A stretch of 64,000 bases of DNA from Cycas panzhihuaensis. Lineage: Eukaryota; Plantae; Cycadophyta. Below, piece by piece: positions 2,031 to 48,562 of the stretch. How positions within the stretch are numbered: the stretch's first letter is position 1; each line of letters opens with the position of its first letter. The position numbers were made by a program, and so were the translations under genes. Below the pieces are notes generated by a model. That model was given only the letters and a program-made list of their open reading frames with translations. It was not told where the DNA came from and ran no database searches. The stretch covers positions 207,335,741-207,399,740 of the forward strand of contig CM041465.1 of assembly GCA_023213395.1 (NCBI GenBank), given 5' to 3'.

Positions 2031-2522
2031 TATTTCCTCGCCATCAGGAATGGACAAGAGTGGCATCTCTTAGGTAAGTAAAACTATACATTTCTATCTC
2101 TTACTCTATCTACTTTTATGGCATGATGAGATGTATTTATGGTTTCAATAGCCTGATATGGTTAAATAGCTTATTTTGTTACTTGGTTTACTTGCCTAGT
2201 TCTTGCCTATGACTATATTTTCAGCCTATGATGACCAAGACCACAGTTCTATGGCATCATATATATCTTAAAGCACCTCCCTAGAGTTTTTAGGTACTTT
2301 ATACCTCTTTAACCCATCTTGACTCATTTCTAGTTTATCGTATGACTCATTAGGTTAGGTTCTAGCTTGCTTGCTCATCAAAGTCGTTTTACATTAATAT
2401 TGATGCTTGGCCTTCATCTTTTCCATATATTGGGAAGCCCAACCACTGCCTAAAGCCCTTAAAAGACCTAACAGCCCTCTAATCTTTATTTTTGTTTCCT
2501 TGGGTTGGTCTCTCATATTATT
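2031..2522 (+). repeat. G1 5' LTR, left part (split by Copia A)
   Basis: Colinear with 33660-34154; interrupted at TTATT. Confidence 0.92.
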
Positions 2523-8870: not shown

Positions 8871-8875
8871 CAATC

Positions 8876-11269: not shown

Positions 11270-11281
11270 TGGTATCAGAGC
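11270..11281 (+). promoter_or_regulatory. PBS (tRNA-iMet) of Copia C
   Basis: Exact TGGTATCAGAGC abutting the LTR CA with no spacer. Confidence 0.95.
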
Positions 11282-11378
11282 TCATTATGCCTGTTATTTT
11301 ATTTTTTTTATTAATGTATTAACCATCCAAAACTTTTTTTTTTAATTTTTTATTTTTGGTCACAGTGATCATTCATTC

Positions 11379-13496: not shown

Positions 13497-16400
13497 ATGG
13501 CATTAATGCCAAGGACAGTCACCTATGTTCCAATTCCAGTGTTAATCGGCTTAAACTATGCCAACTGGAGGAATCGCATATCCCATCAGCTTAAACAGCA
13601 AAAGGTATGGCAATATGTAACAGGTGAATTTCAAAAACCAAAAGTTGATGCTACTAAGAATCTTATGGTATATCTGATGAACTCGGATGCCACATTAGGC
13701 ACCATATTAAATTCTCTTTTACCAAAAATTAGTTGGCAATTTTCTTCTCAGAACTTTAGTTGTACCTACTGTCATAAAAGAGGCCATACTATTGATATCT
13801 GTAGAAGTAGAATAGCCTCGGAAGCATGGAAAGCTTCCAAGGGATTGCAAAATAAACTGCAATCCCATTCTCAATCTCATTTCCAATCAAACTCTCAATC
13901 ACGATCATAAAATCATCAATTTCATAATCGTTCCTTGGCAGCAACAACTTTTACGTTTGTTGCTCCTTCCAATCGACCACCACAATGGATCATTGACTCT
14001 AGTGCATACCATCATATGACTGGACACTAGAAAACTTATCCACCTATCAATTTGAAATGAACTCTAAAGAAGAGATTTCGTTCGATAGTGGTAATCAACT
14101 CAAAGTTAAAGGATCTGGTGATGTTACCCTGAAGGATGGTTCAATCAAGGACATTTTTTACGTACCTGGTTTATTACCAAACCTCCTCTCAGTATATCAA
14201 ATTTGTCAAAAAGATCTTATTATCGAATTCTAGAAAAATAAATTTATCATTAAAGACCCATTACACAAATTCAAACATATTGCTTTAGGACCTGTTGATT
14301 ATAATACAAGTCTCTATAGCATGACTAGTTTTTAAAATAATAAATCAAAATCATTTAGTGCCTTCATTGCTAAATCTGACTCCGTCAGCAAACTTTGGCA
14401 TGCAAGATTTGGCCATACTAGCTATGAAAAATTTTAATATTTAATCAAGCATGAAATGGTCCATGGTTTACCACCATTAAATACTGTTTATGGTGTTTGT
14501 GAAGCCTGTGTGACAGGCAAACAACACATGGATCCATTTCCACATAAAACTCAATTCTGAGCAACTACTCCACTAGAACTTGTCCACTCTGATATATGTG
14601 GACCTTTTCATATTCCATCATATTCAAGATCTCGTTATTTTGTTACATTCATTGATGATTATTCAAGAAAATGTTGGTTTATATGCTCAAAACACGCAGT
14701 CAAGTGTTCGACATTTTCGTTGAATATAAAATATTAGTGGAAAATCAATTCAATTTAAAAATCAAAATATTCTGATCTAATAATACTAAGGAATATTTAA
14801 GTAAAATTTTTATCTCCCTCTACAAATCAAATGGAATTAAATTTCAACATTCAGTTGCATATACACCTCAACAAAATGGTGTTGCAGAACACAAAAACTG
14901 TACTCTTATTGAAATGACTTGTTGCATGTTACATGCAAAGAATATCAATCTAAAATTATGGGCAGAAGCAATTAACTATTCTAATTACTTATTAAACCAT
15001 TTACCCAATAAAAGTTTACAAAATGTCACTCCAGAACAAAAATGACCTGGAAAGAAACCATCTGTTCAACACTTACGAATCTTCGGTAGTATCATGTGGG
15101 AACATATTTCTCATGGAAAACGTAAAAAGTTAGATAAAAAAAGTCAAAAATACATCTTCATTGCCTATAGTGAAGAAAGTAAAGTATATAGACTTTTAGA
15201 TCCAGTCACACATAATATTTCTATTTTACGTGATGTAGTATTTGATGAAGAAGGATCTACTTCAACATCTACTTATGTAGAACTCCCTGTAGACTTATTA
15301 ACCAATACTCGTTTGGTTGATGATTCTAAAAAACAAGTTGATTCAGACATCATAGATTCTTTATCAACTCAAGTCTAAAATTGGACTTTATCAGAACCAG
15401 CTGATACAGATTCTTCTCTTCAACCTAGTACATCGAATCAACCTACAACCTCAGATTTAGTTACTCATAAGCAACCAACTTGGGCAACCAAAATACTTGC
15501 TGATGTTAGATCTAATGTAGGCAATCCTACTGATACTAGGCGCACACATATGCAAAAACTTCATACAAATTTTGCTTTAATAATAAAAATAATGGAAAAC
15601 AATGATCCCAAAACTTTTAAACAAGCCAACAACAATCCTGTTTGGTAAGACGCTATGCAGACTGAATTTGTTGCCTTAATTAAAAATTCTACCTAGGATC
15701 TTATTCCACTTCCACCCAGAAAAAATGTAGTTGACTATAAATGTGTTTATAGAACCAAATATAATTCAATAGGTGCAGTGGAAAAATATAAAGCTCGTCT
15801 TGTTGCCAAAGGATTTTCCCAAATAGATGGCATTGACTATAATGAAACCTTTGCTCCTGTTGCAAAGATGAATATAATCAAGACCATCATTGCTCTTGCA
15901 GCCAAATTTGGTTAGGAAATCCACCAAATGGATGTTAAGAGTGATTTCTTGAATGGTGATCTCAAAGAAGAGATCTACATGTCACAGCCACCTCGACTCA
16001 TTGAAAATCCTAATTTAGTCTGTAAACTTAAAAAATCCATTTATGGTTTAAAACAAGCTCCTCGAGCTTAGTATACCGAAGTTAATGATTACTTAATTCA
16101 CATTGGATACACTAGATGTATTAGTGATCTAAATCTCTATTTTAAACGTGAAGATGAAAATCTTACCATTCTAATTCTTTATGTTGATGATATTATTATC
16201 ACTGGATCATCAACCCATAATATTCATCATCTCAAATCAACCTTAATGAACAAATTTGAAATGACAGATTTAGGACTATTACATTATTTTCTAGGTTTAC
16301 AAATTTATCAAAATCAATCAAATATATCACTATCTCAACTTAAATATATTCTCGATTTACTTCAGAGGTTTAACATGGAAAATGCTAAACCTGTAACCAA

Positions 16401-17150
16401 TCCTTTACAATCAGGAGTTAAACTAACTACTGATTGTTCAACTCTATTATATGATCCAACTCTTTATAGACAACTTATTGATAGTCTAATTTATCTTACA
16501 TACACCTGCCCTGACATTTCTTATGATGTTGCTTTATGCTCCAGATGCATGCAACAACCACATGAATCTCACTGGAAAGCAGCCAAACGAATCTTACGTT
16601 ATATAAAGAATACCGTGTTTCATGGTTTAACTTATAACTTTTGTAATAAACCATCAGCATTAACTGGATATATTGATTCCAATTGGGCAGGTGATTCAAA
16701 TGATCGTAAATCTACTTCTGGTTATGTGTTTTTTATTGATTCCTCACCTATTACTTCGTCAAACAAAAAAATGTAGGCATTGGTGTTATCAACAACTGAA
16801 GCTAAATATCGAGTATTAGTCGAAGCTGGTAAAGAATCACTTTGGCTAAAATCTCTACTCAATGAAATTAGTCTGACTCTAAACTCTTCAATTGAAATTA
16901 AAGTTGATAATAAAGGTGCAATTACTATTGCTTCTAATCCTGTTTCATATTCTAGAACTAAACATATAGAATTACATCAGCATTTTATATGTAATCTAGT
17001 TACTGATAATATTATTTGTTTATCTTATTGTCCAACAGATTTATAGATTGCCGATATACTTACAAAGTCTCTAACTGAATTGAAGTATTTACATCTCAAA
17101 GATTTATTAGAGATAAAAGAAGTCTCCATCAAAGGGGGATTATCATGATG
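13497..17150 (+). pseudogene. Copia C gag-pol (stops and frameshifts)
   Basis: [107 protein letters not shown]. Confidence 0.96.
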
Positions 17151-17196
17151 AAGATCTTCTTTTCTCTCCAGTACAAAAGTTTACATTAAAGGGGGA

Positions 17197-17637
17197 TATT
17201 AGATTGTATAATGCAAACTTATGTATTTTAATGTAATTATTTATGTCACATGTCTAAAATATAATTTAAGTCATTGTAATGTTTTTTAACTTCAGTTTAT
17301 TTAATTAAATTTGTGGAAGGTTGTTGAAATTATGAAACTGCATTTCAACGAACCTCCTTAGTATTTAATCTCCTAAATTCCTGGAATATGTCCTAGGAAT
17401 CTAGGAGGGCTATCTTCATGCCTTTTTCAAAGGTTGGTTTGGTCTGTAGGTGGTTTCACCACATGGTTTTTGTTCAGTATTATTTTATTAATAAAACTAG
17501 AATTTAAGAGGTGGTTTTTTTTCCCCAGAAAGGGTTTTCCATCTATCAAATCTATGTGCATGTTCAATATCTAATATTTCCTGTGATGTTGTTAATTATG
17601 TGATCCTGTGATGTTGCTCATGCACCCATTTCCATCA
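17197..17637 (+). repeat. Copia C 3' LTR
   Basis: Match to 10828-11269. Confidence 0.96.
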
Positions 17638-17642
17638 ATTGC

Positions 17643-18440
17643 AATGGTTCAGGTTAGAGGGTAGTAAACTAGTTAATATTCCTCTTCTTGTTGGTTTAAA
17701 ATTATTAACTAAACAATGACCAAAGATTCACTAAGAAGTTAAAGACATGGTGTTTATCCCTTATGCTAGTGTTTTTGGTAGCTTGATGTATGCAATAGTT
17801 TACACTCAACTAGACATTGCCCATGCAATGGGAGTAGTTAGCAGGTATATGCCAAACCCAAGCAAGGAGTATTGGGTGGCTGTGAAAAGGATTTTCAGGT
17901 ATCTATGGGATACATCAGACTATGGAATTTGCCATCAAGAAGATCCCATAGAGAGTAGAATAATGAACTTGAGAGGTTTTATTGATGTTGATTAGGCTAG
18001 AGATCTTAACAGTAGAAGATCTATAAGTGAGTATGTTTTTACCCTTTGTGGTGGCATAGTCTATTGGATGAGTAAAACACAATAAGTTATAGCACTTTCT
18101 AGCACAAAAGCAGAGTATATGGAAGCTACTCATGTATGCAAGGAAGCAGTTTGGTTATAGAGATTATGCCCAGATATTGGCTTTAAGCAAGATGTTGTGA
18201 GGATAGATTGTAATAGTCAAAGTGTAATCTAGCTAACAAAGAATCCTATTTTTCATGCTCAGTCGAAGCATATTGATGTGCAGTTCCATTTTATGAGATA
18301 AATAGTTCAAGATCACAAGGTAGATTTGTAGAAGATTGCCATATAAGAGAATATTATAGACTCATTGATCAATATTGTTAGCACAGAGAAATTTAGATGG
18401 TGTAGAATTGCAATAGGTATTTATGATTTTGGCATTTAGT
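17643..18440 (+). pseudogene. Copia A RT C-terminus and RNase H
   Basis: IPYASVFGSLMYA, AVKRIFRYL, GFIDVD*ARDLNSRRS, SKHIDVQFHF. Confidence 0.93.
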
Positions 18441-18487
18441 AGTTGTATATGTAAGTTTTCTTGTAAAGTATACAATAAGTGGGAGAT

Positions 18488-18872
18488 TATTAGATATTTT
18501 GAACACTTTGCAAGTGTTACATGGGTATAGGTATTACACCTAATCCCTTTGTGTCTTACAGGGGTCTTTGTTGGCCCATGGTTTATACCCATTGTATTGT
18601 AAAACTATAAGGTGGTATCTTGTAATGTTGTGTCTATATATTCTTATATAATAACACATGTAATATATGGTTGTAGATGAGTCCATGTAAAGAATTAGGA
18701 TTTATTCATCTCTATAATTATTTAGCTATTACTTAGATTAATAAAAGGTCTATGCTTAAACCTGAATCTCTTGGCGTTCTTTGTTGAGTGCTTAGTTTTT
18801 TTATGCTATTTGTTCTTTACATGGTTTAAAGTTCTATTATCACATTGCTTCTGCAGTTATATTTTCTCTTCA
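18488..18872 (+). repeat. Copia A 3' LTR
   Basis: Follows the PPT; ends ctcttca, then the TSD. Confidence 0.93.
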
Positions 18873-18877
18873 TTATT

Positions 18878-19151
18878 CTCTAGGTTATTTTTATTATTTG
18901 TTATATTTTTTCATCCTGCTTCAAACTTTGTGGCACTGCATTAAACTTCACAGTACCATGAACTTTACCATAGGGCAATTATCCATTAATTACCACAGCC
19001 AGAAAATGGATAATATATTTTTTCTCTAATATATTTTTATCGCAGAAAATATATTTTGCTCTATTTTGTTAAGAAAGGAGAGGCAAGACCTCTCATTTCT
19101 TCTTGTTATTATTGTCCTATCCTAGGGTTTCCACTAGCCAACAATAGGACA
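18878..19151 (+). repeat. G1 5' LTR, right part (3' end provisional)
   Basis: Colinear with 34155-34875 except for ~460 bp missing. Ends ccactagccaacaataggaca, an imperfect inverted repeat of the LTR start. Confidence 0.65.
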
Positions 19152-21296
19152 GGTTTTGGCCCACTCTTAGGAAGGCAAAAGAAGGATAAATAGCTAGAGT
19201 TATGATTCCTAATGCTACTTCCTCTAGAGTAACCCCCACTTCTTAAGATCCCTTCATACCATACACACTCCATAAGCTAGTACATCCCATCAAGTGTGAT
19301 CCCTTCCATATTTGTAATGTTCACAATACTTGCAACGTTTGCCTCATTACTAGTTTGTGCACATCTTGCTTGCTAGAAACCATTATCATTTCTACACCTT
19401 GTTTTATAATATTTATAGCTTTTATAACATTTGCATCTTCTACAATATCTATAACTTTTATAAGATTTGTAACTTTTACAATACTTGTAGCTTTCACAAA
19501 CCCTTATACCTATTTTGTCTAAACCATTTATTTCCACCCAACTCACTATATGATACCTAACTATTTAGAAGGTGTTTTATTCATAGGATCTAGCCATCCT
19601 GAGGCTATCATCTTCTCTTTATTTCAACCCCCCTTTCCCCTTTTGTGGTTTCATAAGAACATTAATGCATGTAAGGAGAATAATATACTGATTGTCATTA
19701 CTTTTCTTTCATTATAAGAAGTAAACTTTTATTCTCACCAAGGTAGAACACACATGCACTCCTAGATATATATATATATATATATATATTCTTGTGGCTT
19801 ATAAGGGTTTACATGTGTTTTCCAAAGCATAAGAGATGTTGCCTTCCCACGCAAGTGAGGTGACACCATAGTAAAAAGGTACTACTCTCTATCTTCCTTC
19901 ACTTACCTTCTTTCAGTTCCATTATTTCATTTCATTTCCATTTTATTTGCTTTAAAGTATTTTGGAGAAGGTAAGGAAGAACCTCTCAAGCTTCCCCTAT
20001 GACACCCACTATGGAAAGGGAAATGAGGTTGTCAATAAAGAAGATACAAAGAGAAGAATCATGCCACTCCATTAACTGACACATTTTCAAGTGTACTCTG
20101 CTAACCTCCCCTTCTCTTCGCTCCTTTCTCCCCCTCTTTCCCTTTCAATAAAAAATATATTAAAAGGATAAGTATTCTATTTTCGTTTCTTTCATACACT
20201 TACATATCACATAAGGGAGGGAAAGCATAACATTAACTAAGCATCTTTTCTCCTTTCCTCTTGCACTAGAAATGAAATGTTGCATATTTCTTCTTTTCCT
20301 TTGACTCTACATGTTGTATATTGAAAAGGTACAATAAAAGTGCACTTCATCCCTTTCTTACACTAATAGGAAATATTATTACATCTTTCTCATTAGTTGC
20401 ATTGAGAAAAAGAAATAGTTACATATAGATAGTATTTTCATTCTCGCTCTTCCCTCTTGTCCCCTTAAATAACCTTTTGAGAGAAAAGGAATTAAGAGTG
20501 AGGAAGAGTAGTTAGCATCTCTTGCTTGTAACATAAACATTACAATAACTAAACATTGTAATAATTATTAGTTAGAAGCAAAACTACCCCCACCACAACA
20601 AATAAACAAATGACAACCTATCTCCCTTCTCCTCACAATTAGAGGAGAGATCTCCAAAACCTAATTACTCCCACTGCATCTAAGGCTAAATAACAAACTA
20701 GATATGCCCCCATGCACTTCCAATAACAATCACTCCTCTCTCTCACTTCTAGGCCTCCTTTCTACAAGGAACCATCACCCTCTTGCCTCCTCCTCAAAAG
20801 GAGGCCTTTCTTCCCTTCTCCCTTACCTTAAGGGTAGGAGAGCCCATCTACAGTTTCTCGGTAATCTGAGAATCCCTCTTTGCCTAACTGAACCCAAGAA
20901 AGTACTTAGAAAAAAGGGAAGGTCACTGCGCTATTTGTGGGTCCTTGATCCTATATTCTAATGCACAGGTTCCCTTTGAGGGTAACGTATCTCCTTTTTT
21001 TAGGTTTGTAGGCCCCTATTATAGTTATAGTATTAGCTTAGGAGTTCTAATATATAGTGAACCCCTAGAGGCACACTTCCATTGGTGACCATACTAGGGA
21101 TCCACTAGTAAGAAAATATTATAATTTCCCCTTGTGTTAGCATTGCTTTTCTCCTTTTGTCTATACCTTCTAGATTTATTGGGCAACCCCCAACACCTTT
21201 CCTTTTACTTTTACCCTTAGCTCTTCCAAAGTTCTAGGTGAGACATGAATGTGACGATTTTCTCATCATTTACAAGGTCTCCCTCCTACTTCAAAA

Positions 21297-21928
21297 TGTT
21301 GGATATTGTGGCAACAATTATGGGGCTAAAATTTTGGCATGTTTTTGGCGCGATTTCCCCCCCTAATTTTTCTCAGGGGGTTCCAAGTGAGATCCCCCTT
21401 GGTCAGTGGGGGGAGTGGAATGTCCCCTATTAGGAAGGGGTTTAGGGGTGATAGCCCCTGACCTAAAAAATTAACCATGTAAAGCATATTAAAATGTAAA
21501 GAGAATCAGGGTTGTTTGATACAAATACCCTAGATTCTACAGTTGAAATTCATGCCTTGGATACCCCTCTCATGTAGCCCATTTTAGAGATTTTCTTATT
21601 ATATTGTATGTAATGTAATGTACTATGAAGAGGGCAGCAACTATTTATTATTTTAGAGAGCACTCTGTAACTGAGATGTATTATTTCTCCATTCTACAAC
21701 AATAAAGATTGATACCTTTCCTATGTGGATGTTTTCCTAGAACACTGCTAGGGTTTTACCACATTATATTGGGTGCATATGTGATGTTTGGCTTTCATTT
21801 TTATGTTATTATATGATCTCTGATTTTAGAACTTGTATGTAATTTTAAGTTTTGATTTATATAACTAGTTGCAAGAATGCAATAGATCTTGGTGGTTGTT
21901 AAAGAGTTGGGACCTTGTATTCTCAACA
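21297..21928 (+). mobile_element. Copia solo LTR, related to the Copia E LTRs
   Basis: TGTTGG...TCAACA; degenerate TSD caaaa/cggaa; empty site cagaa in G2 (~37013); colinear with 47828-48490. Confidence 0.92.
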
Positions 21929-22099
21929 CGGAAGAGTCTCTATATTCCTTTATTCCCTTGTTAATTTTGAATTAGTTGTGGAGGGATATCTATCAGAATA
22001 GACATACTATGCCTATATTTCTAAAACATAACCACAAACTTCAACCTATTTCTAGGGTCTCGTCCAAGAGGGTAATGACCCTATCTTCTATATAGATGA

Positions 22100-25000
22100 T
22101 CAACAACACTCAGACCTCTACCATTTCTCCATACATGATTTAGGTGTGTCATCCGCTATGGAGTACCACCTCCCTAGACAAAGTGCCCATGGGGATTGAC
22201 CTATAGGTTCCACTTTATATGAGGAACCTTCCACCTCATGTGAGCAAGCGAGGACCTCTCTTGTAGATGTTGTAGAAGTGTTGCAATAGTGTTTCCAAGA
22301 TACAAGTGTCCAATTATCCCTAAAATGGATGGAAAGCATTCTTTGTAGTATGGCACTTCCTTCTTCCTTATATGTGCCTCTTAGTTCTTCCTAATCTATG
22401 CTAATAGCCATGATAGGGCCACTCCTATCATTCCATCTACTTAATGCATCTCTCATGTCCAAGGGACTATTTAATGTATGTTCATATCTCAAATTGGGTT
22501 GAGCATGCCTCTCACAAGTCAGGCAACCACACCCAAACTAACTATGGTTCATGCCCCTCTTACATAACTTAGGGAACCCTCATGTATCCTATCTTTGGGC
22601 CACACGAGATCCATCCTCATGTGTCCCCAATCTCAACTAAGAGATTCTTCCCTTTACCTACCCCCAGGATACACGTCCCAACCATGGAGGCATGGTAAGG
22701 GAAGTCCCCTTATGGTTTATGAGGTAGATTCACTTCACCCATATGGAGTCGCATCTCCTATTGGTGGCCTATATGGGCAAAATCCCATCCCACACCCACC
22801 TTTTTTGTCTTCATGTTCAAACTCATATATGATGCTTTTGTAAGGAGGATTTGCACATCCTCAAGGCTCTTTTTCCCATGCCCCCTCTCAATAAGGGGTA
22901 TACCCTCAAAGGGGAGTGGGCCCCTCTCATACACTTACCTACTTTCTAGCCTTCCCTTAAATAGGAATGGTTTCCTCCTACCAAGTAAGAGGGAATCCAT
23001 ATCTTCCTCATACTCAAACTCCTCAAGGAGAACTTGGGTATCTGTACCCACCTTCTTCTTCTTCTTTTGTCGACCCATTAACTTAACCAAGAGTTTACCT
23101 CTTCGTCGACTATAGGTCAACTCCACTATCCATTAAGGTGCTTAAGACTAACCTACCACCTCATCCCCCTTAAGGTACCTAAATTTGATGGGACCTTATC
23201 ACAGGACCCAACCAATAATGTCAAGAGATTCTCTACGGTGTGCACCGACTATTAGGCCTACGACCATATATTGATGAAACATTTTTCTCATTCTTTGCAG
23301 GGAGATATCCTCAAGTGGTTCTATCATCTCCTTACCTATTCCATTCATTCCTTCCAATGGCTTGTAGACAAATTCGTTAATTATTTTAATGTAGATCATC
23401 CTTTTGAGAGTGGAAGAAAAGCCGTACTCTCCCTTAAATAAGGTCACAAGGAGATGAACCATGACTTTGTGAGGTGCTTCCATGACCTTCTTCATTCCAT
23501 GAAGGCCATGTTGCCCAAGGAATTAAAGAGGGACCTTTTTCATAAATGCCTTCCATCTCAAAGTCCACATCCTCAAAATAGGGGCAACAATGTATGGCTC
23601 TACCATAGTTAAGTGCTTGGCGCTTAAGACCATTGAGATCTAGGTAGGTCTCAAGAAACCTCTCAAGTCATTGCAATGAAGAGAGGCATGCCCATCATCG
23701 CGCGACCAACGATCCCAACAACCTCTAAGGCCTTCTACCCACTCAACATAGAAGACCTTAGATCCATTAACTTCTGTTATATATTCATTCGAGTGTATTG
23801 TGAAGGAGCTTAAGCTCCAACCCTCTCCATCACCTTCACATTCCCATAAGCTCATCCATCATGCCTCCCAAGTTGCACCTCCCAAAAATAAAAATACTCA
23901 CTCTTCTAAAACTAGGAAAACCAAACCTTTCTCAGATAAGATGTGGTGCTCCATTCATGGTAAGTGCTTCCATAAGGACTCACTATGTTGTGCGTAGCAC
24001 CTAGAACTTTCCCTACCTCAAGACTCTTCCCCAAGATAAGTGTCTAAGCCTAATTTAGACCAACTTGTCCATCGAGATCCCTTTCCCAAACATGGAGAAT
24101 GGGACCAACATACCCAAAATAGGGGGAACAGGAATAGGAGGTGACCCCTGACCACTATTCCATGCAAGTGAAAGGAAAAAGGGCAAGGAACTTATCTTCT
24201 CCTACTAGTTCCCACCCTCAAACCTCTCAATCCCATAATAAGGGAAAGAGAGTTATCCAGAGTCCTCTAAAGACCATTCTTTTAGGCACTGTCATGAGAT
24301 CTCAAGTAGCCAAAGAGGCCATTGTGGCCTCCTCTTCACAACATAACTTTTCTTTGGATAATCTACCTTATAAAATTTTGGTAGTTCCTAAGACCATTCC
24401 TGTCTACTCTAGTCATTACAACTTCCAAAGGACATACCCCCAACCTACTAGGAAGGGGAAGTCCTTCTTGATCATTGACGAGCTTCATACTATGGCCACT
24501 AGAATGTCCATGATGGATGTCTTGCAAAGCTACCCTAAGCAGTGCACTCTTCTCCTTGAGGCTTTAGGTCTAACCGATGCTCTAAAACATGCCTTGGATG
24601 CTTCCCCAAAGTAGGAGCCTCTCATCACCTTTGATGTTAAAGACCTCCCTCTGGCAAGTGAAAGGGAGTGCCAATTTCACTATCCTTTCACCATCTTGAT
24701 AGACACTCTAGAATGCACTCTTAGAGGAATAGTTGTAAATAATGGTTCTTCCATTAATGTTATACACTTACGTATAATGCAGGAGTTGGGTATAATGGAT
24801 CTTGAGCTGGTCCCATGGCATTACCAAGTCAACGATGGTAGCGAAAAGACACCCTTAGGCTCAATTTCTATCCCCCTTGCCCTTAAGGATAAAACCATCC
24901 TCATGACATAGTAGTCCTTGATGTAGACATGGACTATAACCTATTGTTGGGATGCTCATGGTTTGACTAGATGGGAGCTATGTGCTCATCCTATTAGGGG

Positions 25001-28000
25001 AAACTAAAGTTCATCCATGAAGGGCAGATGAAGGTTATTTTATAGGAGCCTCCTCCCACTTGATCATTATATTAATCTTGCCAAGTGGCTCGTGACCCAG
25101 TGAGGGGCAACAAGGATCTATCTACCTATTCCTCCACCTATTCAATTGATGTCCCTAGTACTTCTAGATCAGAGGAAGGGACCTCCTTTTTCTCCTCAAA
25201 TCTCATTCACTTCACCCCCATTGGTGTTGGGAGTTATGGATACCTCATCGTTTTGAGTGATCATGAGCCTAAGGATAAGGGCGAGGAGCCTCCTCACTCC
25301 ATATCCCTCCTTAACATCCATAGGAGGCACACATTTCATCACCCATCTAGTCTAGAGTCCCAACCCAAGACCTCTTTAGAGGAGTGTAGCACTTCTATCA
25401 CATTTAGGAAATCATGCATAGTCACTCCTGCCACATGTGTAGTCTCCCAATCTCCTTCATCTTCATCAACTCCCCATACCTTATCGCCCCCCATAGATAA
25501 TGAGGATGGGGAGCCTCTTATCCTATGACATAGGAGGATACCTTCTGACTCTTTCAAGGAGTCTCCAAACTTTATGGAGTGGTGGGTCAACTACTACAGA
25601 CCCATTGCTCCCCCTTCACCCCATTCCTCATCACCTCTAAGCAAGACTATCCACGAAATAGATTACTTTAAAAATGATGAGGCTCTATTAGAACATCTAG
25701 CTAGCTATGTGCCCAACTAAACTTCTGGTCACTATAAACTTGGTTTTTAGAAAAGCTTATCCCTAAGCACACCCCTAGCTGACCCAAATTAGTCTAACAC
25801 TCCTCTAACTCCTTCCATTAACTAAGCTCTCCTCTACTTTGAAGAGGGGAATGCTATGTGCATAGGGAAAACTAAGGATATTACCCTCACCCCTGGCAAG
25901 ATCATAAAGTTTGGAGTGGAATGTATATTTAAAGAAGTAGAGGAATATACACTCCTTTTCCAAGAGTTCTGTGACATCTTTATGTAGGACTATTTAGACA
26001 TGGAGGGAATAGATCCCTCCATTATTACCCACAACCTCACAACTATCCTAAGTGCCTACCCTATGTAGCAAAAATAGTGCCCTCTCTATTCTAAACTATC
26101 TACCATAATAAAAATGGAAGTGGAAAAGCTCCTAGATGTAGGACTAATCCCTTCCATTGATTACCCCAAGTGGGTATCCAATATCGTTCATGTCACTAAG
26201 AAGAACAGAATGATCTAAATCTGCATTGATTTTTGGGACATAAATAATGCTTGTCCTAAGGATAATTTTCCTTTGTTATTTATAGATCAGATCATCAATT
26301 GGATGGTAGGTTTTGAAGTCATATCCTTAATGGATAACTTCTCTAGATATAACCAAATATAAATATCTCTCGAAGACCATTATAAGATGGCCTTCACCAC
26401 CCTATGGGGCACATTTGCCTATAAGGCAATGGCCTTTAGATTAAAGAATGTAGGTGTTACTTATCAGAGGGTAATACAGTTTGTTTTCCATGACCTTAGA
26501 AACAAAACTCTCGAAGTTTTCATGGATGACATGATGGGCCTCTCCCTCAACAGGACCCACCACGCTAAGGGTTTATGTGCTATCTTTACACAATCCTACA
26601 AATACCATGTTAGTTTAAAGCTACTCAAATATGAATTTGTCATGATTGCCTACAAGCTTTTAAGTTTTCTTATCTCCAAACAAGGGATCCAGATTGACCC
26701 CAATAAGGTCAAATCCATTCTTGACATGCCCCCACCTAAAACACAACACCAAATTAAGTCATTTTTGGGTAGGTTGGGTTTTCTTAGGCATTTATTAGTA
26801 GACTTTTCCATAAATGCCAAACCTCTAACTAACTTGCTAAAGAGAGGGTGGGGGGGGGGGCATTTGTATGGTCTATCAAAGCCTAGGAAGCCATCCAAGA
26901 TCTCAAAAAAGCCTTGGCCTCCACCCCAGTCCTGTTGCCCCCTCTCTTTGATCATCCATTTATTCTTTATACCTAGTCTACCGATGAGTCCTTAGGAGCC
27001 ATGCTAGTCCAAGAAGATGATTCAAGGACCAAACATGTTATATATTTCATCAACTACGTATTAGTGGCAACTGAGCTTAACTACCCTCCTACTAAAAAGG
27101 AATGCCTAGCCTTGGTCCATGTGACTAAGAAGTTCAAACATTACCTCTCAGGAATACCACTCATATGATCATCTAATCCAATCTATTGAGGTACCTTTTA
27201 ACCTAGTCCAACTTGACTGGAAGAATAGGTAAATGGGCCATCCTCTTTTAAGAATATGACCTCAAAATCATTAATAGAAAATCAAAGAAAGGAATCTTGG
27301 TTGCTGAATAAGTAGTCGATGCCCCCCTTCCTAACCTTTCAAACCTTCTAGTTGATGATTCTTTACTTGATGAGCCTATCCTGACTATCCAAGACTCGTC
27401 ACCCCATCCACTAACTAGTAGTGAATGGTATGGTGATATTATACAATATCTTACTCAACAATAATACCCTTCCTTATACTAGCGATAAGGTAAAGTTGCA
27501 TGTTAGGGCTATAATTAGGAAATATTTTCTCATAAAGGAAGTATTGTATAAGAGATCCTTTAATGGAATTCACCTCTGCTATGTTAATCTTGATGAAGTG
27601 AACCAAATCCTTTGCGAGTATCATAGTGGCATTTATAGAGGCTATTTTGGAGGCCAATCCATAGCCTAGAGGATCCTTCACATGGGCTACTATTGGCCAT
27701 CCCTCTTTAAGGATGCCATGCTTATGCACAGTGTTGCCAAAGATGCCAGGAGTATACTAATGCTATCCACTTACCTTTGAGGCCCTACATCCTATTATTT
27801 TCCAATGGCCCTTTTCCCAATTGGGATTAGATATTATTGGAGCCATACCTTTATCTTTGTCATCGTAACATAAGTTCATATTAACTGCAATGGAATACTT
27901 AACCAAATGGGCTAAAGTAGTCCTAATGTCATCTACTACTAGAAAGATCATTATCACCTTTATCTATCAACATATTATCTATTAATTCATGGTCCCAAAT

Positions 28001-28668
28001 ATCCTAATCATAGATAATGGCACACCTTTTTGCAATAAAGAGGTGGATGAACTTTTTGAGAAGTTTAAGATATCTCACAAGACCTTCTCTCCTTATTACC
28101 CCCAAGCTAATGGCCAAATTGAATCATTCAAATAAATTCTTATTAATATTTTAAAGAAAACGGTTGCCTAATTCCAAAGGGATTGGCTCCTTCAACTCCC
28201 TTCTGCCTATGGGCTTATCGTACTTGCATTCACACTGTGACAGGGATGACCCCATTCTACCTTGTATATGGGACCAAAGTGGTCCTCCCTTTGGAAGTCA
28301 AGATCCCTTCCTTATGGGTTTCTCTTCGAGGTCTTGTTGATGATGAATCATGCCACCAGGCCTACCTCCTTGATCTTGAAGCCTTGGATGAGAAATGCTT
28401 GGCAGTATACTAAGTGGACCTCACCTCTAAGGCTAGAGTATAAAGGATGTATGATAAATATCTATGTCCTCATCTACTAAACCCTAGGGATCATGTCCTT
28501 AATCTTGAGTACCTCCACAAATGTCTATCCAAGTTTGGGCCCAAGTGGTTTAGCCACTTTGTCATCCTTAAGAGCCTTAATAATGGCACATACAGGATAA
28601 TGACATTGGAGGGTCTTGAATTTAAGAAAGCCCTAAATGGTAAATTCTTAAAGAAGTTTTATGTATGA
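22100..28668 (+). pseudogene. G1 gag-pol: P/S-rich N-terminus, gag, PROT, RT, RH, INT (heavily interrupted; start approximate)
   Basis: VPKFDG (~23175), WCSIHGKCFHKDSLC, VVNNGSSINV (~24735), AFTTLWGTFAY, FMDD, GRIGKWAIL, WPFSQLGLDIIG, YYPQANGQIES, ALNGKFLKKFYV*. Confidence 0.93.
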
Positions 28669-29280
28669 TCATTTCTACTTCTAAGTAGAATAATCACACT
28701 TTTCCTTGATCTAAAATGAGCCTAAACTACTGCTTTAGGCATACCATTATTCCTACTAATTAAAAGAGTAATGATTTTTTAGAGTCACTCCCTATCATCT
28801 TGATTTCATTATTGTATCTCTTTGTCTCCTTTATAAAGGAGTCCCGCCCTTTTCCTAGTTGGGCAAGTAAAACTCATTTACTTTTGAGGGTGGGGTCACC
28901 TCCTAACTTAAGCCCTTTTCATTTGGATATCCATACCTCCCTTGCTATTGTTCTGTAGTGAGGCCACCATGTTCTTCCCAAGGAAAATATGTGCTGCCCT
29001 CACCTAGTCCCATACATAACCATCCAATATATACATGATGATCATATGCACCTAGTGTGAGTGTGGGGTTGCATAAAAAGAAGCAAGCATGCATGGCTTA
29101 TATGTAATATGATCAAAACCATAGTGTAACAATCAAATCAAACCATCTAAGTGCATAATCCCCCATGCATCCGTGCACTTATATTCATGTGTATCCATGT
29201 CCATTTCTACCTATGATCATAAATAAAATAATAAAATCATAGAGATAATGAATAATATCATCATATATCAAAATGGGATG

Positions 29281-29283
<3 letters not shown>

Positions 29284-29346
<63 letters not shown>
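29284..29346. repeat. (AT)n microsatellite
   Basis: Directly visible. Confidence 0.98.
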
Positions 29347-29351
<5 letters not shown>

Positions 29352-29499
29352 GTATAATTATATGATACATCATCTCAACAATGTACCTAAGGAAGCTAGA
29401 ATCCTTGCAGGGAGGAGTACAATCATGTATACATATGTGATAAATAAACTCCCTAGAGGTCCTAATCTTTCCTACCAAAATACATAATACAAAAGTCTC

Positions 29500-31985
29500 T
29501 TGGATACTCTCTCCTCATGGGGTGTCATCCCCTCATCTACCTAATCCCTCGCTAAGAGACCACATCCCTCCCAGGCTCCTATGATGTCTCTGTGAGGTCC
29601 CAGCCTCACTCTCGTCATCTCGTACCCTCCACAGGGTCATGGTCATCATGTGTGTGCCGCTGCATGATGACTAAGCAGCCATCCAGTTGACTAAGTGGTC
29701 GTACCACTCTTACAAGTAGTCCTTCTCGATCAAGACATGATCCCTCTCTCTCTCTACTTTATGGAGCCTCTCCTCCAGCACAATGACCTATATCTAGCTC
29801 CCTGCATTGACCCCTTCTCCTCATGGATAATCCTCCAGCTCTCTCACTTAGCCTTGCAATAAGTCCCTCTCTATTAGTAATTGATCCCTCTTTACCTGCA
29901 TCCCATTCTGAGTGTGATGTAACTGTCTCATGCTCACCTGGTGCTCCTGGGTCACGATAGCCCATATATCTTGTGCTCATATGAGGGGGTGAATTCTATT
30001 ATGTGTGCCCCCACTAATCAAGGCTCCTCACTCTCCATGATGGGAGGTTGTCCCTCCTCATATACATGAAGGAATAACTCGTGAACTACAACCTCTATCA
30101 ATGTTGCCATCTCATCACCACCTGTTAAACCATGCATATCATGTGTCAGTCTAAAATATACATAGTGGCATATCAAAGTATAAGAATAAGTATCTGAGGA
30201 AGCAATAACTAATAAAAATGAAATCTAAAGCTAAAATCAAGGGAGAATCTCACCTATTAGGATAGTCAACTCCTCCTCTCTCATGATCTCCTTATCTTCT
30301 TCTCCCTCAACTACTACCTCTGCTTCCTTGACCCTTGGTACCATCTGCTCACCCTCCTCGTGAGCTACTGGTGTATCTCCTCCCTCTGTCCTCTCAACTC
30401 CCAAGGCCTCCCCCTTCCCTGTAGTTATCACTACCTCTATTGCCACTACCATAGATACTACTACCTTTGGGAATCTGTCAGTAGCTCCCTCGCCTACCTC
30501 TGCACCTCCCTCTAGTCCTACTGTAGTACCCTCATCTCCTCCCTCCTTACCTTTACCATCATTTGGATAGTCACCTAACTCCCCTCCCTCCTCATCACTT
30601 GCCCAATGGATCACTCAATAAGGATCTGCTATATAGTCATTGAGTGTGAGTAGGTCTACTAAGGTAGCTACCATAGAGTGTCTTACATGCACCTAGTCCT
30701 AACTACCCCTAAAACCTATCTGGAATCAATGAACTATAGGTGCACTAGCAGATATCAGGTGGGGTCCTCCTGGTGGGGCTACTCCTCTAAAATGATAAAA
30801 AAACCAACACTACAATAGCGTGCAATAAGAGAAACCACCTCTCTTAACTATCCTAATATAGTCAAGCTAAGCCACCAGATTAACTGCTATCAATGTAGCC
30901 TAGTCAAATCATTCTCCCACCTTGCATCTACATATGGTGGTCATCAAACCACCAAGAATATCCCTATAGTTTTGTTTATGGGAAATCCAAAATAGAATAG
31001 CGAGTGTGATGAGTTTCCTCACTTACCGAACCCTAGATAAAACCATAGACTATACAAAAAGCCCTTTGTGTTCCCATCTACTCCTGCTAATAAAAAATCT
31101 AGCTACCTCTTGACGGGCGACATCTATGCTAGGTAGGGTTCCCAATAAAGTTGGTGTACCTCCAGCTAGCACCTTGAGTATCCTTTGGATATCCTCTAGA
31201 GTGATGCTAATATCCCCCACTTATAGGAGATAAAAAGCATGTCTCCTCCTATCCTAGTAAGACACTATGTCTACTAGGAGCCTCTGGTCAAATGCATACT
31301 ATAGCATCTTGATGATCTTCAATAGCCTGTAGCATCATGTTATTACCCTCTCTTGTAAGCTCATTATCTCGATGAAGTTAATCATAGCCGTCACGATGTT
31401 TTCATGATTATTGACCATAAGAACTTCCTGTAAATATCTATAAATCATGAGTTAGCCCCCATGACCCAACTATTATATCATCTTCCCCCTCTCTAGTTGG
31501 CCTAGGTCGGCTGAAACTTAGCTGAGCTATCAAAATAGAAAAAGTTCTTTTTTTCTTTTCCCTTAATGGGATTCCACCGCATGTCAATATCTATGATACT
31601 ATAGATATTGATACATGCCCCACTGAGATTTTTCTAGGTCTTTTGCAGGCCCTACTCCAAACTTTGCAACACCACAACAAATGTCATGGGGCCATGGCTA
31701 CCCCCCTTAAAAAGGGGGGGTGGCCATAAAAATCCAAAAAAAATATTTTTAATGGACTTAACTCGATCCACTAAGACTAGAGTTGCCTAATGCCCTAGTC
31801 CTCCCCCTCCCCGAGCCCCTACCTATGACCCTTATAGGACCCAAATTTCTAAAAAAGAGCATTAAAATTAAATGATTTAAAAGCAAGGATAAAGGCAAGA
31901 TCCACTTACTAGATTTGGTCTAATGCCCACTATCTCTCTATCATGGTCCCAACAACTATCTCCTCACCAAAATCTAATGGTTGAA
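29500..31985 (-). pseudogene. Spliced antisense gene of G1: plant mobile domain (PF10536-like) plus acidic tract and coiled coil; ends approximate
   Basis: Minus strand reads LLVDIVSY*DRRRHAFYLL*VGDISITLEDIQRILKVLAGGTP, FD*ATLIAVNLVA*LD, GFSYCTLL*CWFFYHF and DLLTLNDYIADPY, the PMD motifs in order. Phase-consistent GT-AG intron at 30253-30122; a further acceptor with CTAAC branch point at 31428. Confidence 0.85.
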
Positions 31986-32062
31986 TCTCCTACAGTGAGC
32001 TTACAAAGTGTGGTAAAGCCTAGTTACTCAAAGGAAAGGGCTCCAGATCGTATGAGGGGCCT

Positions 32063-33083
32063 ATGAAAATGAAATCCATTTTTACTCCCTTGCCCTCTTT
32101 TATTCGTGGGGCCTCCCGAGATGCCATCTTCATTTCCTCCAAGGGGATAGCCCTCATGACCCATTTTCTTCCTTCATTTCCCTTTCTTATAGGCCATGAG
32201 CCCTATCTCATCCCTCAAACCTCCTTTTTCACCCTTTTCTACGTATTTATAGTGAGTTTCTTTAGCTCATTTGAGGCCCACTGTCTCAATTTTTATGTCT
32301 CTCCAAAACCTACCTTTATTTATACTCTATCAGATTGCTTTAACATACTGAATCTATTTTTCTATCCGTTCAAGCCCCCAAGTCTCTGGGTGAGATCTTC
32401 CTCTCCTTTTAGGCCATTGTTAGCCCTATCATAAACCCCAAGGATTGTCAAAAGAGCATATTTTAGCATTGATTCTTGACCCTTCCATCAAGCAAGTGAG
32501 AGCCTAGTAGTTGACCCTCAAGGTTCTCCTATTCCTCTGTAGATAATATATCTAGTTATTTTGAGTTATTATAGCCCCATTGCCACTTTTTTCATCTTAG
32601 TAGGGATATTAACTATTTTCTTTATAAACTGGCCTAAACTCCCTCTTTTCGCCATAGTTCTACTTGTTTTTACTAATGGTGGTAGTCATAGCAACCATGA
32701 ACCCTCTATAGCCCTGTGGATCCTTTGCGATACCTCCAAGAATGACTACATGTGTTATGGGGTCTACTTGCTTGAGGCTACAAATAATGAAGCTGAATAC
32801 ATAGTCATTATCAAAGCCCTTGTCGACATACTTCACTTCTACCATGGTCCTATTAACCTCTATTGTGACCCTTAAATTGTTGTGTCATAACTAACCTAGG
32901 TTTACCAAGTTCATTACCCATGATTTGAGGTCCCTCACCTTGACCATTGGGTCATTATCTCTCTTTTACTCTATGGATATCTGATATATCCCTCAAGACC
33001 ATAATGTTGAGGCTAACAGCCTTATCCACTGTATCTTAGAGTATCGCTTCCCTTCTCTAGGCAATCCATCATCAAGTCTATAG
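32063..33083 (+). pseudogene. Separate 3' ORF: unknown N-terminal region plus archaeal-type RNase H (RVT_3/aRH)
   Basis: VFTNGGSHSN, ATNNEAEYIVIIKAL, LYCDP*IVVS*L, YIPQDHNVEANSL. ORFs 32063-32434 and 32561-32875 are in the same frame. Confidence 0.85.
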
Positions 33084-33659
33084 GCTAAACCTCCTCCCTT
33101 TAAGAGACTTACATCATTGACCAGTTTCCTTGGCACCTCTCAAAGTAGGCTACTAATGAGATTAAGCTATGGTGACCATAAGTTTATGTCTTTACTCCAT
33201 TCTCATGCCATTTGTAGCATGATCTTTTGTATAATTGTACTTTATATTTATAGATTTTTAGCTTGAATTTATATATCTTTTGGCTATGTTCACATTCTAT
33301 ATAGAATTTGCATTATATATGCAAATGATGGGGGTAACTTCCCCCCCTCCCCCCCCTGCCATTCTCCCTTCCTTTTGTATTACACTCTTGGGCATCATAT
33401 AGGCAATCCCCATGCTACCTTGTCTCCACATTACATGCACTCTGGGTCTAGGGTTCTGTACCTCGAGGGTGGGTAGGTCACTGCTCCCTAACCTCTCCCA
33501 AATGCATATCCCTATCTATGTAATCCATTATAGTATTCACTACTTACCTTGGACAATGACATATTAGCATAAGTATATGTTACTAATTTATTTTGTATTA
33601 ATAGCATTCACCATTGTCAGATACTTTTGAGCGACAAGGTTATGTTACCAAGGGGGTAG

Positions 33660-34875
33660 TGTTTCTTGGCCAGTGGGGATGGGAAGGAATGGCATCTCTC
33701 TAGTAAGCATAGGTATATATTCCTATTTCTTGCCCTGTCTACTTTTATGGCATGATGAGATGCATTTATGATTTTAGTGGTATGATATGGTTACATAGCT
33801 TATTTTGTTGCTTGGTCTACTTGCCTAGTTCTTGCTTGTGACTTTGTTTTCAGCCTATGATGACTTGGACCACGGTCCTGTGGCATCATATAACTCATAA
33901 AAGCACCTCCCTAGAGTTTTCAAGTACCTATGGGCCTCTACAACCCATCTTGACTCATTTCTAGTTTGTCATATAACTTATCAAGTTGGATTCTAACTTG
34001 CTTACTTGTTAAAGTCCTTTTATATTGACATTGATACTTGCCCTTCCCCTTTTCTACATATTGGGAAGCCCAACCACTACCTAGAGCCCATAAAAGACCC
34101 TACCAACCCTCCAATCTCTATTTATGTACCCTTGGGCTAGTCTCTTATATTATTCTCTAGGTTATTTTTATTATTCTTTTATATTTCTTCATCCCACTTC
34201 AAACTTTGTGACACCACATTAACCTTCACAGTACCACAAACTTTATTGTAGATGGACTGTCCATTAATTGTTGCAGTTAGAAAATGGCTATATTGACATT
34301 TATTATGAATTTGACACATGGCCGAAGGGTCTTTCCCACCTAAATTGAATCCTAGCATCTCTAAAACCCTAATTTGAACATAAAAACCTAATTTTAAACT
34401 CATTTTCCAATCTCTCATGATAAAAAATGGCTCTTCTCTCTTCTTTTCTCCTTTCTTCTTCCATTCTAAGTTTGATAGGGCAAAAACCCTAGCTTATAGG
34501 TCTAAAAGAAGGATTCTTTAGTGAGATAACTCTCTTCTCAACCTCAATAAGGAAATAACAACTATTTTTTCTGAGATTCAAGGTTCTTCCCCTTTCTAAA
34601 GGAGGCCAACTCCACCAAGAAAGTAGGATTTTGGTTTCCATTCTCCTTGACTATGAGGTAACTTCCAATTTTTATAGATCTTCATGGCTAAAAATATGTT
34701 TTTTTTTTTCTGTTGTTCTCCTTTGAATACGCCTTATTTCATTAGTTATACTTCCTAATATATATTTTAGCATATAGTTTTGCTCCATTTTATTAAGTAA
34801 GGAGAGCCAAGACCTCTTATTTCTTCTTGTTGTTATCATCCTATCCTATGGTTTCTACTAGCCAACGATAAGATG
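33660..34875 (+). repeat. Central Tat LTR shared by G1 and G2 (3' end provisional)
   Basis: Preceded by a PPT and followed by a leader homologous to 19152 onward. Confidence 0.75.
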
Positions 34876-37800
34876 ATCTTTGGGCCACTCTTGGGAAGCC
34901 AAAGGAAGGACAAATGGATAGAGTTCTGACTTCTAAAACCACTTCCTCTAGGGCAACCCCCACTTCTCAAGATCCCTTCACACCATACCTGCTCCATAAG
35001 CTAGTGCATCCCATCAGTTATGATCCCTTCCACATTTGCAATATTCACAACACTTGTAATATACGTTTTATTAACAATTTGTGCACATATTGCTTACTAG
35101 AAGCCCTCATCATTTCTACACCTTCTTTGATAATGTTTACAACTTTTACAACATTTGCATCTTCTACAATATCTATAGCTTTTACAAGATTTGTAACATT
35201 TACAATAATTACAGCTTTTACAAACCCTTACACGTATTTTGTCTAAACCATTTGTTTCCACCCAACTCACCTATATAATACCTAGCTATCTAGAAGGTGT
35301 TTTATTCATAGGAGATAGCCATCTCGAGGCTACCATCTCCTCTTTCTTTCAACCCCCTTTCCCCCCTTTTATGGTTACATAAGAACATTGATGTATGTAA
35401 GGAGAATAATATGATGATTATCATTATTTTTCTTTCATTATAAGAAGTAAACCTTTATTCTCACTAAGGTAGAACACATGTGCACTACTATATATATACA
35501 TGTATGCATATGCTTGTGGCTTGTAAAGGTTTACATGTGTTTTCCAAATCATAAGAATGGTTGCCTTCCTACGTAAGCAAGGTGACACCACAATAAAGAG
35601 GTACTACTCCATCCCTTCCTTCACTTGCCTTCTTTTAGTTCTATTATTTCATTTCATTTCTATTTTATTTGCTTTAAAGCATTTTGGGGAAGGTAAGGAA
35701 GCCCCTTTCAAGCTTTGCCTATGACACCCACTATGGAAAGGGAAATGAGGTTTTCAATAAAGAAGATGTGAAGAGAAGAATCATGTCACTCCATCGATCG
35801 ATGCATTTCTAGGTGTACTCCACTAACCTCCCCTCTCTTTGCCCCTTTCTCTCCCTCTTTTCCCTTGAATAAAAAATATATCAAAAAGACAAGTATTCTA
35901 TTTTAGTTTCTTTCATACACTTACATATCACATAAGGGAGGGAAAGCATAAAATTAACTAAGCATCTTTTCTTCTTTCCTCTTGCACTAGAAATGAAGTG
36001 TTATATAGTTTTTCTTTTCCTTTGACTCTACATGTTGCATATTGAAAAGTTATAAGGAAAGCACACTTAATCCCTTTCTTGCACTAATAGGAAACATTAT
36101 TCTATCTTTCTTATTAGTTACATTAAGAAAAGGAAATAGTTGCATGTAGATAGTATTTACATTCTCACCCTTCCCTCTCGTCCCATTAAATAACATTTTG
36201 AGAGAAAAGGAATTAAGAGTGAGGGAGAGTAGCTAGCATCTCTTGCTTGCAACATAAATATTACAACAACTAAACATTACAATAATTATCAATTATAAGT
36301 AAAGCTACCTCCACCATAATAAATAAACAAATGCCAACCTATCTCCCTCCTCCTCATAATTTGAGGAGAGATCTCTAAAACCTAATTACTCCAATTGCAT
36401 CTAAGGCCAAACAATAAACTACATATACCCCCACATACTTCCAATAATAATCACTCCTCCCTATTGCTTATAGGCTTCCTTTTTCGTAAGGAACCATCAC
36501 CCTCTTACCTCCTCCTTAAAAGGAGGCCTTTCTTCCCTTCTCTCTCACCTGAAGGGTAGGAGAGCCCATCTATGGCTGCTTGGTAATCTGAGGATGCCTC
36601 TTTTCCCAAACCAAACCTAGGAAGGTACTCAGAAAGAATGGAAGGTTATAGTGTTATTTGTGGGTCCTGAACCTACATTTCAATGCATTGACACCTTTTG
36701 AGGGTAACCTATCCCTCTTTTTGAGGTTTCTAGGCCCTTATTATAGTTATGGTACCAGCTTAGGAGCTCTCACCCATAATGACCCCCCTAAAGGCACACT
36801 TCCACTAGTGACCATACTAGGGATCCACCTATAAGGGAACATTATAATTTTCCCTTGTATTAGTATTGCCTTTCTTATTTTGTATATACCTTTTAGATTT
36901 GTTGGGCAACCCCCAACACCTTTTCTTTTACTTTTACCCTTACCTCATCTAAAGTTATAGGTGAGATAAATGTGATGATTTTCTCGTCATTTACAAGGTC
37001 TCCCTCCCACTTCAGAAGAGTCTCCATGTTCCTCCATTCCCTTGTCCGATTTTTAATCGGCTATGGAGGAATATCCATCAGAATGGACATACCAAGCCTA
37101 TGTTTTTGAAATACTACAACAAACTTCAACCTCTTTCTAGGGTCTTTCCCAAGAGGGTAATGACCCTATCTTCTACCAGATGATCAAGAACACTCAAACC
37201 TCTACCATTTTCCCATACATGATATGGGTGTGTCATCCTCTATGGAGTACCACCTCCTTAGCCAAAGTGCCCATGGGGATTGACCTGTAGGTTCCATTTC
37301 ACATGAGGAGCCTTTCACCCCATGCAAGCAATTGGGGACCCCTCCTATAGATGTTGTAGAAGTGTTGCAGTAGTGTTTCCAAGCTATAAGTGCCAGCCAC
37401 CCCCAAAGTTACTGGAAAGTATTCTTCATAGTATGGTATTTCCTTCTTCCTCATATGTACCTCCTAGTTCTTCCCAATCCACACTTATGACCATAACAAG
37501 GCCACCCCTTATCATTCCATATTCTTCATGTAACTCTCATGCCCAAGGGACTATCCAAGGCATGCTCACATCTTAAATTGGGTTAAGCATGCCTCTCCCA
37601 AGTCAGGAAACCACACCTCAACCGACTATGGTTCATGCCCCTCTTACACAACTTAGGAGACCTCATGTCTCCCATCTTCGAGCCACATGAGATTTACCCC
37701 CATGCATCTGCAGTCTCAACCAAGAGATTCTTCACTTTACCTACCCAAAAGATTTGCATCCCAACCATAGGAGATTCTTCCCTTTCCCATTCTAGTTTAT

Positions 37801-48490: not shown

Positions 48491-48562
48491 AGTGGTATCA
48501 GAGCCACTTTTATTTTTGTAGTGAGTTTGTGAAGGTTTTAGAGTGGCATTTTTCTATACTAA

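Follow-up and report, generated by a model that had tools for sequence, protein, structure and literature searches.

A decayed Tat retrotransposon of Cycas panzhihuaensis with a probably intron-bearing antisense PMD gene and a divergent, probably stand-alone archaeal-type RNase H gene

Tat lineage III of gymnosperms was described as carrying an antisense PMD ORF in its 3' part and an archaeal-type RNase H (aRH) at the C-terminus of the putative Pol, and the passages on this lineage present its PMD without a coiled coil (PMC4408406). In REXdb, TatIII is defined by an aRH after the integrase (INT); its elements are 12.7-17.3 kb long, 64% have a tRNA-Arg primer binding site, 92% have the aRH, and a reverse 3' extra ORF (eORF) of 250 or more codons is recorded for 18% of them (PMC6317226). 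A separate-ORF aRH was later reported for 68% of the Tat elements of Pinaceae, Ginkgo and Cycas, raising the question of how the aRH functions from there (PMC10508981). This arrangement, called Tat structure 3 or 'post-integrase', corresponds to the clusters Tat H (Pinaceae) and Tat I (Ginkgo, Cycas) (PMC10508981, PMC13468544). The aRH ORF was placed 'upstream of pol' in 2023 (PMC10508981) and downstream of the integrase, in the 3' UTR, in 2026 (PMC13468544).

Antisense ORFs between pol and the 3' LTR are also treated in PMC7264820, PMC11963269 and PMC9289625, and gene23 of maize Grande is driven by a promoter of its own that lies upstream, and its protein is nuclear (PMC7264820). A silencing function of PMD is described in PMC5418596 for the host PMD-C proteins MAIN/MAIL1 only; these and the gypsy-encoded PMD-A have the Pfam domain in common with the gene described here. 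An antisense PMD and a separate, post-integrase aRH are thus already published for the gymnosperm lineage, and the suggestion of a first-pass annotation of this DNA that the architecture was undescribed falls for these two parts. It stands for the divergent order of the two genes, of which, as of introns in a Tat PMD gene, we found no description in the text of the literature; figures, supplements and deposited sequences may show the order.

We analysed a window of 64,000 nucleotides of C. panzhihuaensis (assembly GCA_023213395.1, contig CM041465.1), whose features are collected in Table 1. Between two LTRs, with a primer binding site and a polypurine tract (PPT), lies a decayed gag-pol in the Ty3/gypsy order PROT-RT-RH-INT; Pfam matched Retrotrans_gag, RVT_1, RT_RNaseH_2 and rve in gypsy order, and PROT was recognised by eye only. 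The primer binding site, which we take to be tRNA-Arg-like, has a TGG motif that recurs past the 3' LTR at about 36806. INT ends with the TGA at 28666-28668, and the TG that opens the 3' LTR (33660) directly follows the PPT, with both the INT stop and the PPT where the first-pass annotation had put them. At the presumed first Asp position of the native RH we read a stop in this copy (copy 1) and Ser in a tandem second copy (copy 2), both of which are decayed. The second copy begins directly after the 3' LTR and ends inside INT at 42499, and the PMD and aRH genes are absent from it. The 3' LTR merges into this tandem copy, leaving no readable target duplication; in Tat structure 3 one of 5 bp would be expected, along with a primer binding site for tRNA-Arg or tRNA-His. 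The copy is old, as its LTR pair differs by a K2P distance of 0.178 (2690 columns, with 315 transitions and 101 transversions); because of the tandem structure, a date of insertion derived from it is unsafe.

Table 1. Features of the element in the window (position 1 is the first letter of the window)
Feature	Position	Strand	Evidence or remark
5' LTR, part 1	2031..2522	+	blastn 2033-2522 vs 33662-34154, 81%
Nested copia element splitting the 5' LTR	about 2525-18874
5' LTR, part 2, CA at end	18875..21081	+	blastn vs 34141-34290 and 34755-37017
Primer binding site	21083..21100	+	TGG motif one base past LTR end
Solo LTR of a different family	21298-21929
Decayed gag-pol	23200..28668	+	GAG, PROT, RT, native RH, INT; no aRH inside
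Likely last exon of PMD gene, coiled-coil-like	29545..30121	-	one frameshift; 3' end approximate
Likely intron 2, 132 nt	30122..30253	-	donor AG/GTGAG 30253, branch CTGAC 30149, CAG 30122
Main exon: PMD, then Glu/Gly/Val-rich acidic linker	30254..31427	-	Pfam, stop and codon-bias tests
Likely intron 1, about 482 nt	31428..31909	-	donor GTAAGT 31909, branch CTAAC 31455, CAG 31428
Strong hairpin within likely intron 1	31690..31727	+
Likely upstream exon, candidate frame	31910..32060	-	donor 31909, candidate acceptor 32061; covered by related contigs (31825-32091)
Stretch between the two genes, candidate for promoter and 5' leader	32061..32653	.	no convincing homologue, no codon bias
aRH pseudogene, probably stand-alone	32654..33083	+	own profile, Pfam, tblastn
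Polypurine tract (PPT)	33650..33659	+
3' LTR	33660 to about 36804	+	common to tandem second copy

The order of the genes is pol, antisense PMD, sense aRH, PPT, and the element has no further aRH. A profile made from 20 aRH proteins, with the window sequence left out, matched 32654-32923 on the plus strand (iE=1.4e-33), followed by a weak, frameshifted tail (iE 1.6). All other six-frame matches of this profile had iE of at least 1.5, so that there is no second aRH locus in the window, and none was found between PROT and RT or between RH and INT. With the Ginkgo protein Gb_11691 as query, tblastn covered 32639-32920 and 32925-33044, and Pfam RNase_H matched the plus strand with E=0.0064. The aRH occurs solely after INT, in a separate ORF, together with an antisense PMD eORF that scores below the Pfam cut-off, and the element is very probably a decayed Ty3/gypsy element of the gymnosperm TatIII ('structure 3') type. 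Membership in Ogre/Retand (Tat IV-VI) was rejected on the missing aRH between RH and INT, and membership in TatI/TatII on the missing aRH between PROT and RT. Without its nested insertions the element measures about 18 kb, slightly above the range given for TatIII in REXdb (PMC6317226). The first-pass annotation had likewise seen two divergent decayed genes between INT and the PPT, no aRH at the other two sites, and a TatIII-type element with its aRH outside the polyprotein, and on all of these our searches agree with it.

The aRH copy is broken. It contains in-frame stops and one frameshift near 32921-32924, lacks the Arg as well as the first and the last of the catalytic Asp residues, and terminates at the stop at 33081-33083; its codon-position bias is still significant (P=0.0015, compared with 0.012 for the RT of the element). 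Gb_11691 matches the solved RNases H 3u3g, 4e19 and 3hst end to end (E to 2e-21), and we take the product of the intact gene to be about 140 residues long. Cellular archaeal-type RNases H1 such as these three are likewise single-domain enzymes of about 140 residues, whereas the aRH of the window is encoded inside a retrotransposon. It lies approximately 4 kb past the INT stop with the antisense PMD gene in between, and cannot be reached by read-through from pol. The text on lineage III attaches the aRH to Pol, in contrast to this distant position beyond PMD; the order drawn in its figure 2B may agree with ours (PMC4408406). As in Tat structure 3, the aRH is in a separate ORF outside pol, and we consider it probable that it was encoded there as a stand-alone gene.

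Where this gene begins was judged from its relatives. The first-pass annotation had placed the start at 32063, about 100 bp from a 5' coding end of the PMD gene that it put near 31985, a candidate position only. A phmmer search of 1.84 billion proteins with the 305-codon frame from 32063 returned 75 matches. The best stretch began at residue 186 or later in 73 of them, and the other two were one low-complexity match and one running into the aRH core; residues 1-195 had no convincing homologue in this database. The three best aRH relatives (P0001-P0003, all from Logan, 41-58% identical) form a clade with the window aRH (support 97/94), and in all three a Met precedes the first catalytic Asp by 7 residues, at the place that corresponds to 32654 in the window, where the decayed copy itself has no Met codon. 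In Ginkgo-like aRHs, collected among proteins of 40-249 aa and including Gb_11691, Gb_07833 and Gb_19334, a Met stands 14 residues before this Asp in all eight with an intact N-terminus (the N-truncated P0084 was excluded), bearing in mind that gene callers place ORF starts at Met by design. Ginkgo gene models were the only named eukaryotic relatives in that size range. Ginkgo proteins are also the nearest to the window aRH in the aRH tree after its own family, and a joint clade of the two groups has no support there. A scan of related loci gave 21 viral and 80 metagenome loci with 28-40% identity, none of them near the plant family.

These relatives suggest that the aRH likely starts near 32654, not 32063, and with this start the gap between the two genes is about 600 bp and not 100 bp. 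The earlier start would give the aRH an N-terminal extension of 197 residues and the two genes overlapping leaders. Its frame is stop-poor (3 stops in 197 codons, where the other frames have 19 and 11; P=0.013 against shuffles), contigs of other runs match 32036-32073, which holds two ATGs, and P0003 continues upstream of the shared Met for 37 residues. However, LTR and leader frames of this element, which do not code, are just as open (3-4 stops per 197 codons), the frame has no significant codon-position bias (P=0.19), the extension of P0003 does not align to the window, and the Ginkgo-like proteins begin just before the domain. The start at 32063 was therefore rejected for want of a convincing homologue and of codon bias and in view of the Met of the relatives, and we regard the reading built on it as improbable.

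The same relatives bear on the 2015 drawing of lineage III with a 'C-terminal aRNH', that is, an aRH spliced onto the end of Pol, where PMC4408406 puts it. Of the plus-strand donors in 28300-33700 the best lies shortly ahead of the INT stop, at 28640, and its phase fits an acceptor at 32603, an agreement with a chance of 1 in 3. Yet the letters of this donor are inside the INT coding end, and a Met at a fixed place in 3/3 and 8/8 relatives argues against a fused protein. No RT or integrase domain was found in any of the 29 aRH matches scanned, which include all those longer than 200 aa except the low-complexity P0029, so that there is no long retroelement fusion among them, and the group that drew the fusion later described a separate ORF (PMC10508981). 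A Pol-spliced aRH is in our judgement slightly less probable again than the start at 32063.

A stand-alone aRH could also come from a spliced subgenomic RNA of env-like type, initiated in the 5' LTR and bypassing both gag-pol and the PMD gene, in which case an internal promoter would serve the antisense gene only. Spliced env-like RNAs have been reported for barley Bagy2 (PMC7264820), and acceptor-like sites at 32603, 32542, 32412 and 32192 on the plus strand score 3.7-6.8 on a rough matrix. However, the plus strand is pyrimidine-rich throughout, which makes acceptor-like sites expected on it, and the contigs revealed no joint to upstream sequence in the stretch compared, which starts at 29400 and in which a joint to the LTR is undetectable. 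This LTR-initiated RNA is the main rival for the expression of the aRH, and we consider it unlikely.

On the minus strand, Pfam PF10536 (PMD) matched nt 31316-30615 with profile positions 5-245 of 347, and the match is sub-threshold (E=0.0041; 16.8 bits, cut-off 34.9). Because searches of proteins of 497-2000 aa and of 215-685 aa returned no PMD homologue, the identity of the domain comes from this one Pfam match. The coding character of this region was seen in additional tests. In the PMD frame (31427-30255) 14 of 391 codons are stops, while the other two frames have 47 and 36, and none of 2000 Markov shuffles had stops as few; for the PMD core by itself this test fell short of significance (P=0.10). 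Codon-position bias was detected for PMD (P=0.015) and was strong in the acidic linker. The likely last exon has a GC content of 0.49 and a weak Pfam match to the HOOK coiled coil (29949-29836, E=0.019), and its codon bias across the frameshift was not significant (P=0.34).

Two interruptions of this gene, which the first-pass annotation had missed, look like introns. In the likely intron 1 the codon bias vanishes (P=0.94) and there are 13 stops and three palindromes; the hairpin region 31690-31830 is unusually stable (z=-4.15; 0/200 shuffles equally stable). An earlier TAG, 10 nt ahead of the acceptor, is a possible alternative acceptor. The likely intron 2 has a GC content of 0.30, compared with 0.50 and 0.49 in its flanks, and three in-frame stops. 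Two of the five minus-strand CTRAC sites of the region stand 27 nt ahead of a CAG that borders a coding block on its 5' side, on a background of 1.2 per kb, in a test made post hoc and with a rough splice matrix. These signals make it likely that the PMD gene is split by two or more introns and comprises an acidic linker and a last exon resembling a coiled coil. In introns and coiled coil it would differ from the PMD of the lineage III text (PMC4408406), and the passages of PMC10508981 and PMC13468544 on structure 3 mention neither PMD, antisense genes and introns nor an expression route for the aRH. The gene resembles Grande gene23 and the Retand ORFs in being an accessory gene in antisense orientation that follows pol and precedes the 3' LTR (PMC7264820, PMC11963269). 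In contrast to it, the Retand ORFs are mostly Transposase_28 and not PMD, with the aRH inside Pol, and the accounts of Grande and Retand in these two papers give no introns and no divergent partner gene.

The possibility that one or both genes are functionless passengers, for instance a PMD derived from a nested MULE, was also weighed. PMD is also found in MULEs (PMC5418596), and the window copy is wholly decayed. Among the differences from other copies that are listed (40 of 658 and 40 of 128), which are dominated by the decay of the window copy itself, there is no excess at third positions: the counts at positions 1/2/3 are 17/13/16 in PMD and 3/4/1 in aRH. Against the passenger reading, whole-genome contigs of three organisms cover 30/30 bins of 29400-33660 (8063, 6682 and 7180 matching contigs in organisms A, B and C, most of them less than 90% alike), the native RH is reported to be degenerate in all aRH-bearing Tat structures (PMC10508981), and six of the eight Ginkgo-like aRHs keep the first catalytic Asp. 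A nested MULE was rejected because no terminal inverted repeats surround the PMD gene, and 28670-33660 contains only short local palindromes. A TA microsatellite dominates the inverted-repeat matches. We hold passengers to be the least probable of the readings considered.

The contigs also join parts of the cassette. Among the pieces listed (24 of about 22,300), some bridge 31829-32091 and 31961-32266, and there are individual contigs with matches on either side of 32256-32363 and of 32577-32775; no listed piece spans the whole of 29400-33660. Of the five indels listed, two fall in predicted exons, each 3 nt long, and three in intron 1, with lengths of 3, 1 and 2 nt. A RAD run (X8) and run X16 contained no matches to the stretch. 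Run X15, RNA by guess, gave 13 short pieces less than 90% alike, in which no joint matches a predicted intron, and these pieces carry no bearing on expression.

With the aRH start near 32654, the stretch between the two genes is the place where a shared promoter would be expected, and we think an internal divergent promoter there has a little better than an even chance. The TATA box proposed by the first-pass annotation, TATAAATA, is indeed at 32251-32244 on the minus strand. Because the window contains 36 copies of it (15 plus, 21 minus), one copy in 600 bp is ordinary, and the motif was rejected as evidence for a promoter, being at chance level. The hairpin at 32038-32062 was not significant (z=-1.55).

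The explanation that we favour as a whole, with confidence just above even, is a TatIII element with a spliced antisense PMD gene and a stand-alone aRH, both driven from the approximately 600 bp between them. The intergenic stretch would drive transcription of the two genes in opposite directions. The PMD introns, being antisense to the genomic RNA that is packaged, would not be spliced out before reverse transcription and so would persist in the element. The short aRH would be translated from its own mRNA and could act in trans on the RNA:DNA hybrid, replacing the presumably degenerate native RH. By analogy only, with MAIN/MAIL1 and Grande gene23, the PMD-linker-coiled-coil protein may be nuclear and modulate silencing. 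What this locus adds to the published architecture of the lineage is the divergent layout and the likely introns, both from one dead copy.

With the divergent layout, the predicted aRH promoter can be narrowed to a definite stretch, about 32060-32650. The likely introns could explain why no more than 18% of TatIII elements are recorded with a reverse 3' ORF (PMC6317226), with decay as another cause, and the element predicts splice junctions for spliced antisense transcripts, for which PMC7264820 calls for a search. A bolder and doubtful generalisation is that TatIII carries a two-gene unit with one bidirectional promoter, consisting of an intron-bearing antisense PMD-coiled-coil gene together with a free RNase H reaching the particle in trans. 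If true, such a unit would explain how a separately encoded aRH replaces the presumably degenerate native RH, and TatIII would be a retroelement that inherits a spliced, multi-exon gene.

In the segment 33660-42499, a second PBS and gag-pol stand directly after the 3' LTR of the Tat element, and this arrangement is a tandem in which the two copies share an LTR. The second gag-pol is 81% alike to that of the first copy and breaks off within the integrase (42499).

Other repeats are found in and around the Tat element (see the table). The PBS of the copia-type element, at ~3018, is presumably of the Met type, and further repeats are nested within this element. At a larger scale, two copies of a 2-kb direct repeat (1-2030 and 58380-60420), 90% alike and 58 kb apart, enclose the entire nest of elements, and these copies are possibly the LTRs of an older element. 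TA microsatellites shorter than the one listed are present in both LTRs of the Tat element.

Features in the Tat element and its surroundings (window positions)
Feature	Position	Strand	Remark
Candidate acceptor-like site	32061	minus	inside contig-matched stretch 32036-32073
TA microsatellite	29285-29346		between INT stop and end of antisense gene
Copia-type element	2525-18874		nested in Tat 5' LTR; own LTRs ~400-500 bp
Three mutually related LTR-like repeats, ~650 bp	21298-21929, 47827-48493, 52305-52982		other family

The short stretch in which the acceptor-like site lies matches contigs from several runs; ATG occurs twice on its plus strand, and the stretch can form a weak hairpin. Three consecutive palindromes (31579-31618, 31694-31727 and 31730-31759) were seen in the likely first intron of the antisense PMD gene, the middle one with a folding z of -4.15; conceivably, they form a signal in the genomic-strand RNA, for example for packaging or dimerisation. 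A direct repeat (31453-31468 and 32148-32163, 15/16 identical, E=0.89) has its first copy at the branch site of the same intron, and this likeness may be due to chance.

Three Ginkgo proteins related to the aRH pseudogene of the window (P0078, P0079 and P0081) correspond to the gene models Gb_11691, Gb_07833 and Gb_19334, respectively; all are stand-alone RNases H, and they cluster with metagenome ORFs. These three models are likely to be retrotransposon genes that were annotated as host genes of Ginkgo.
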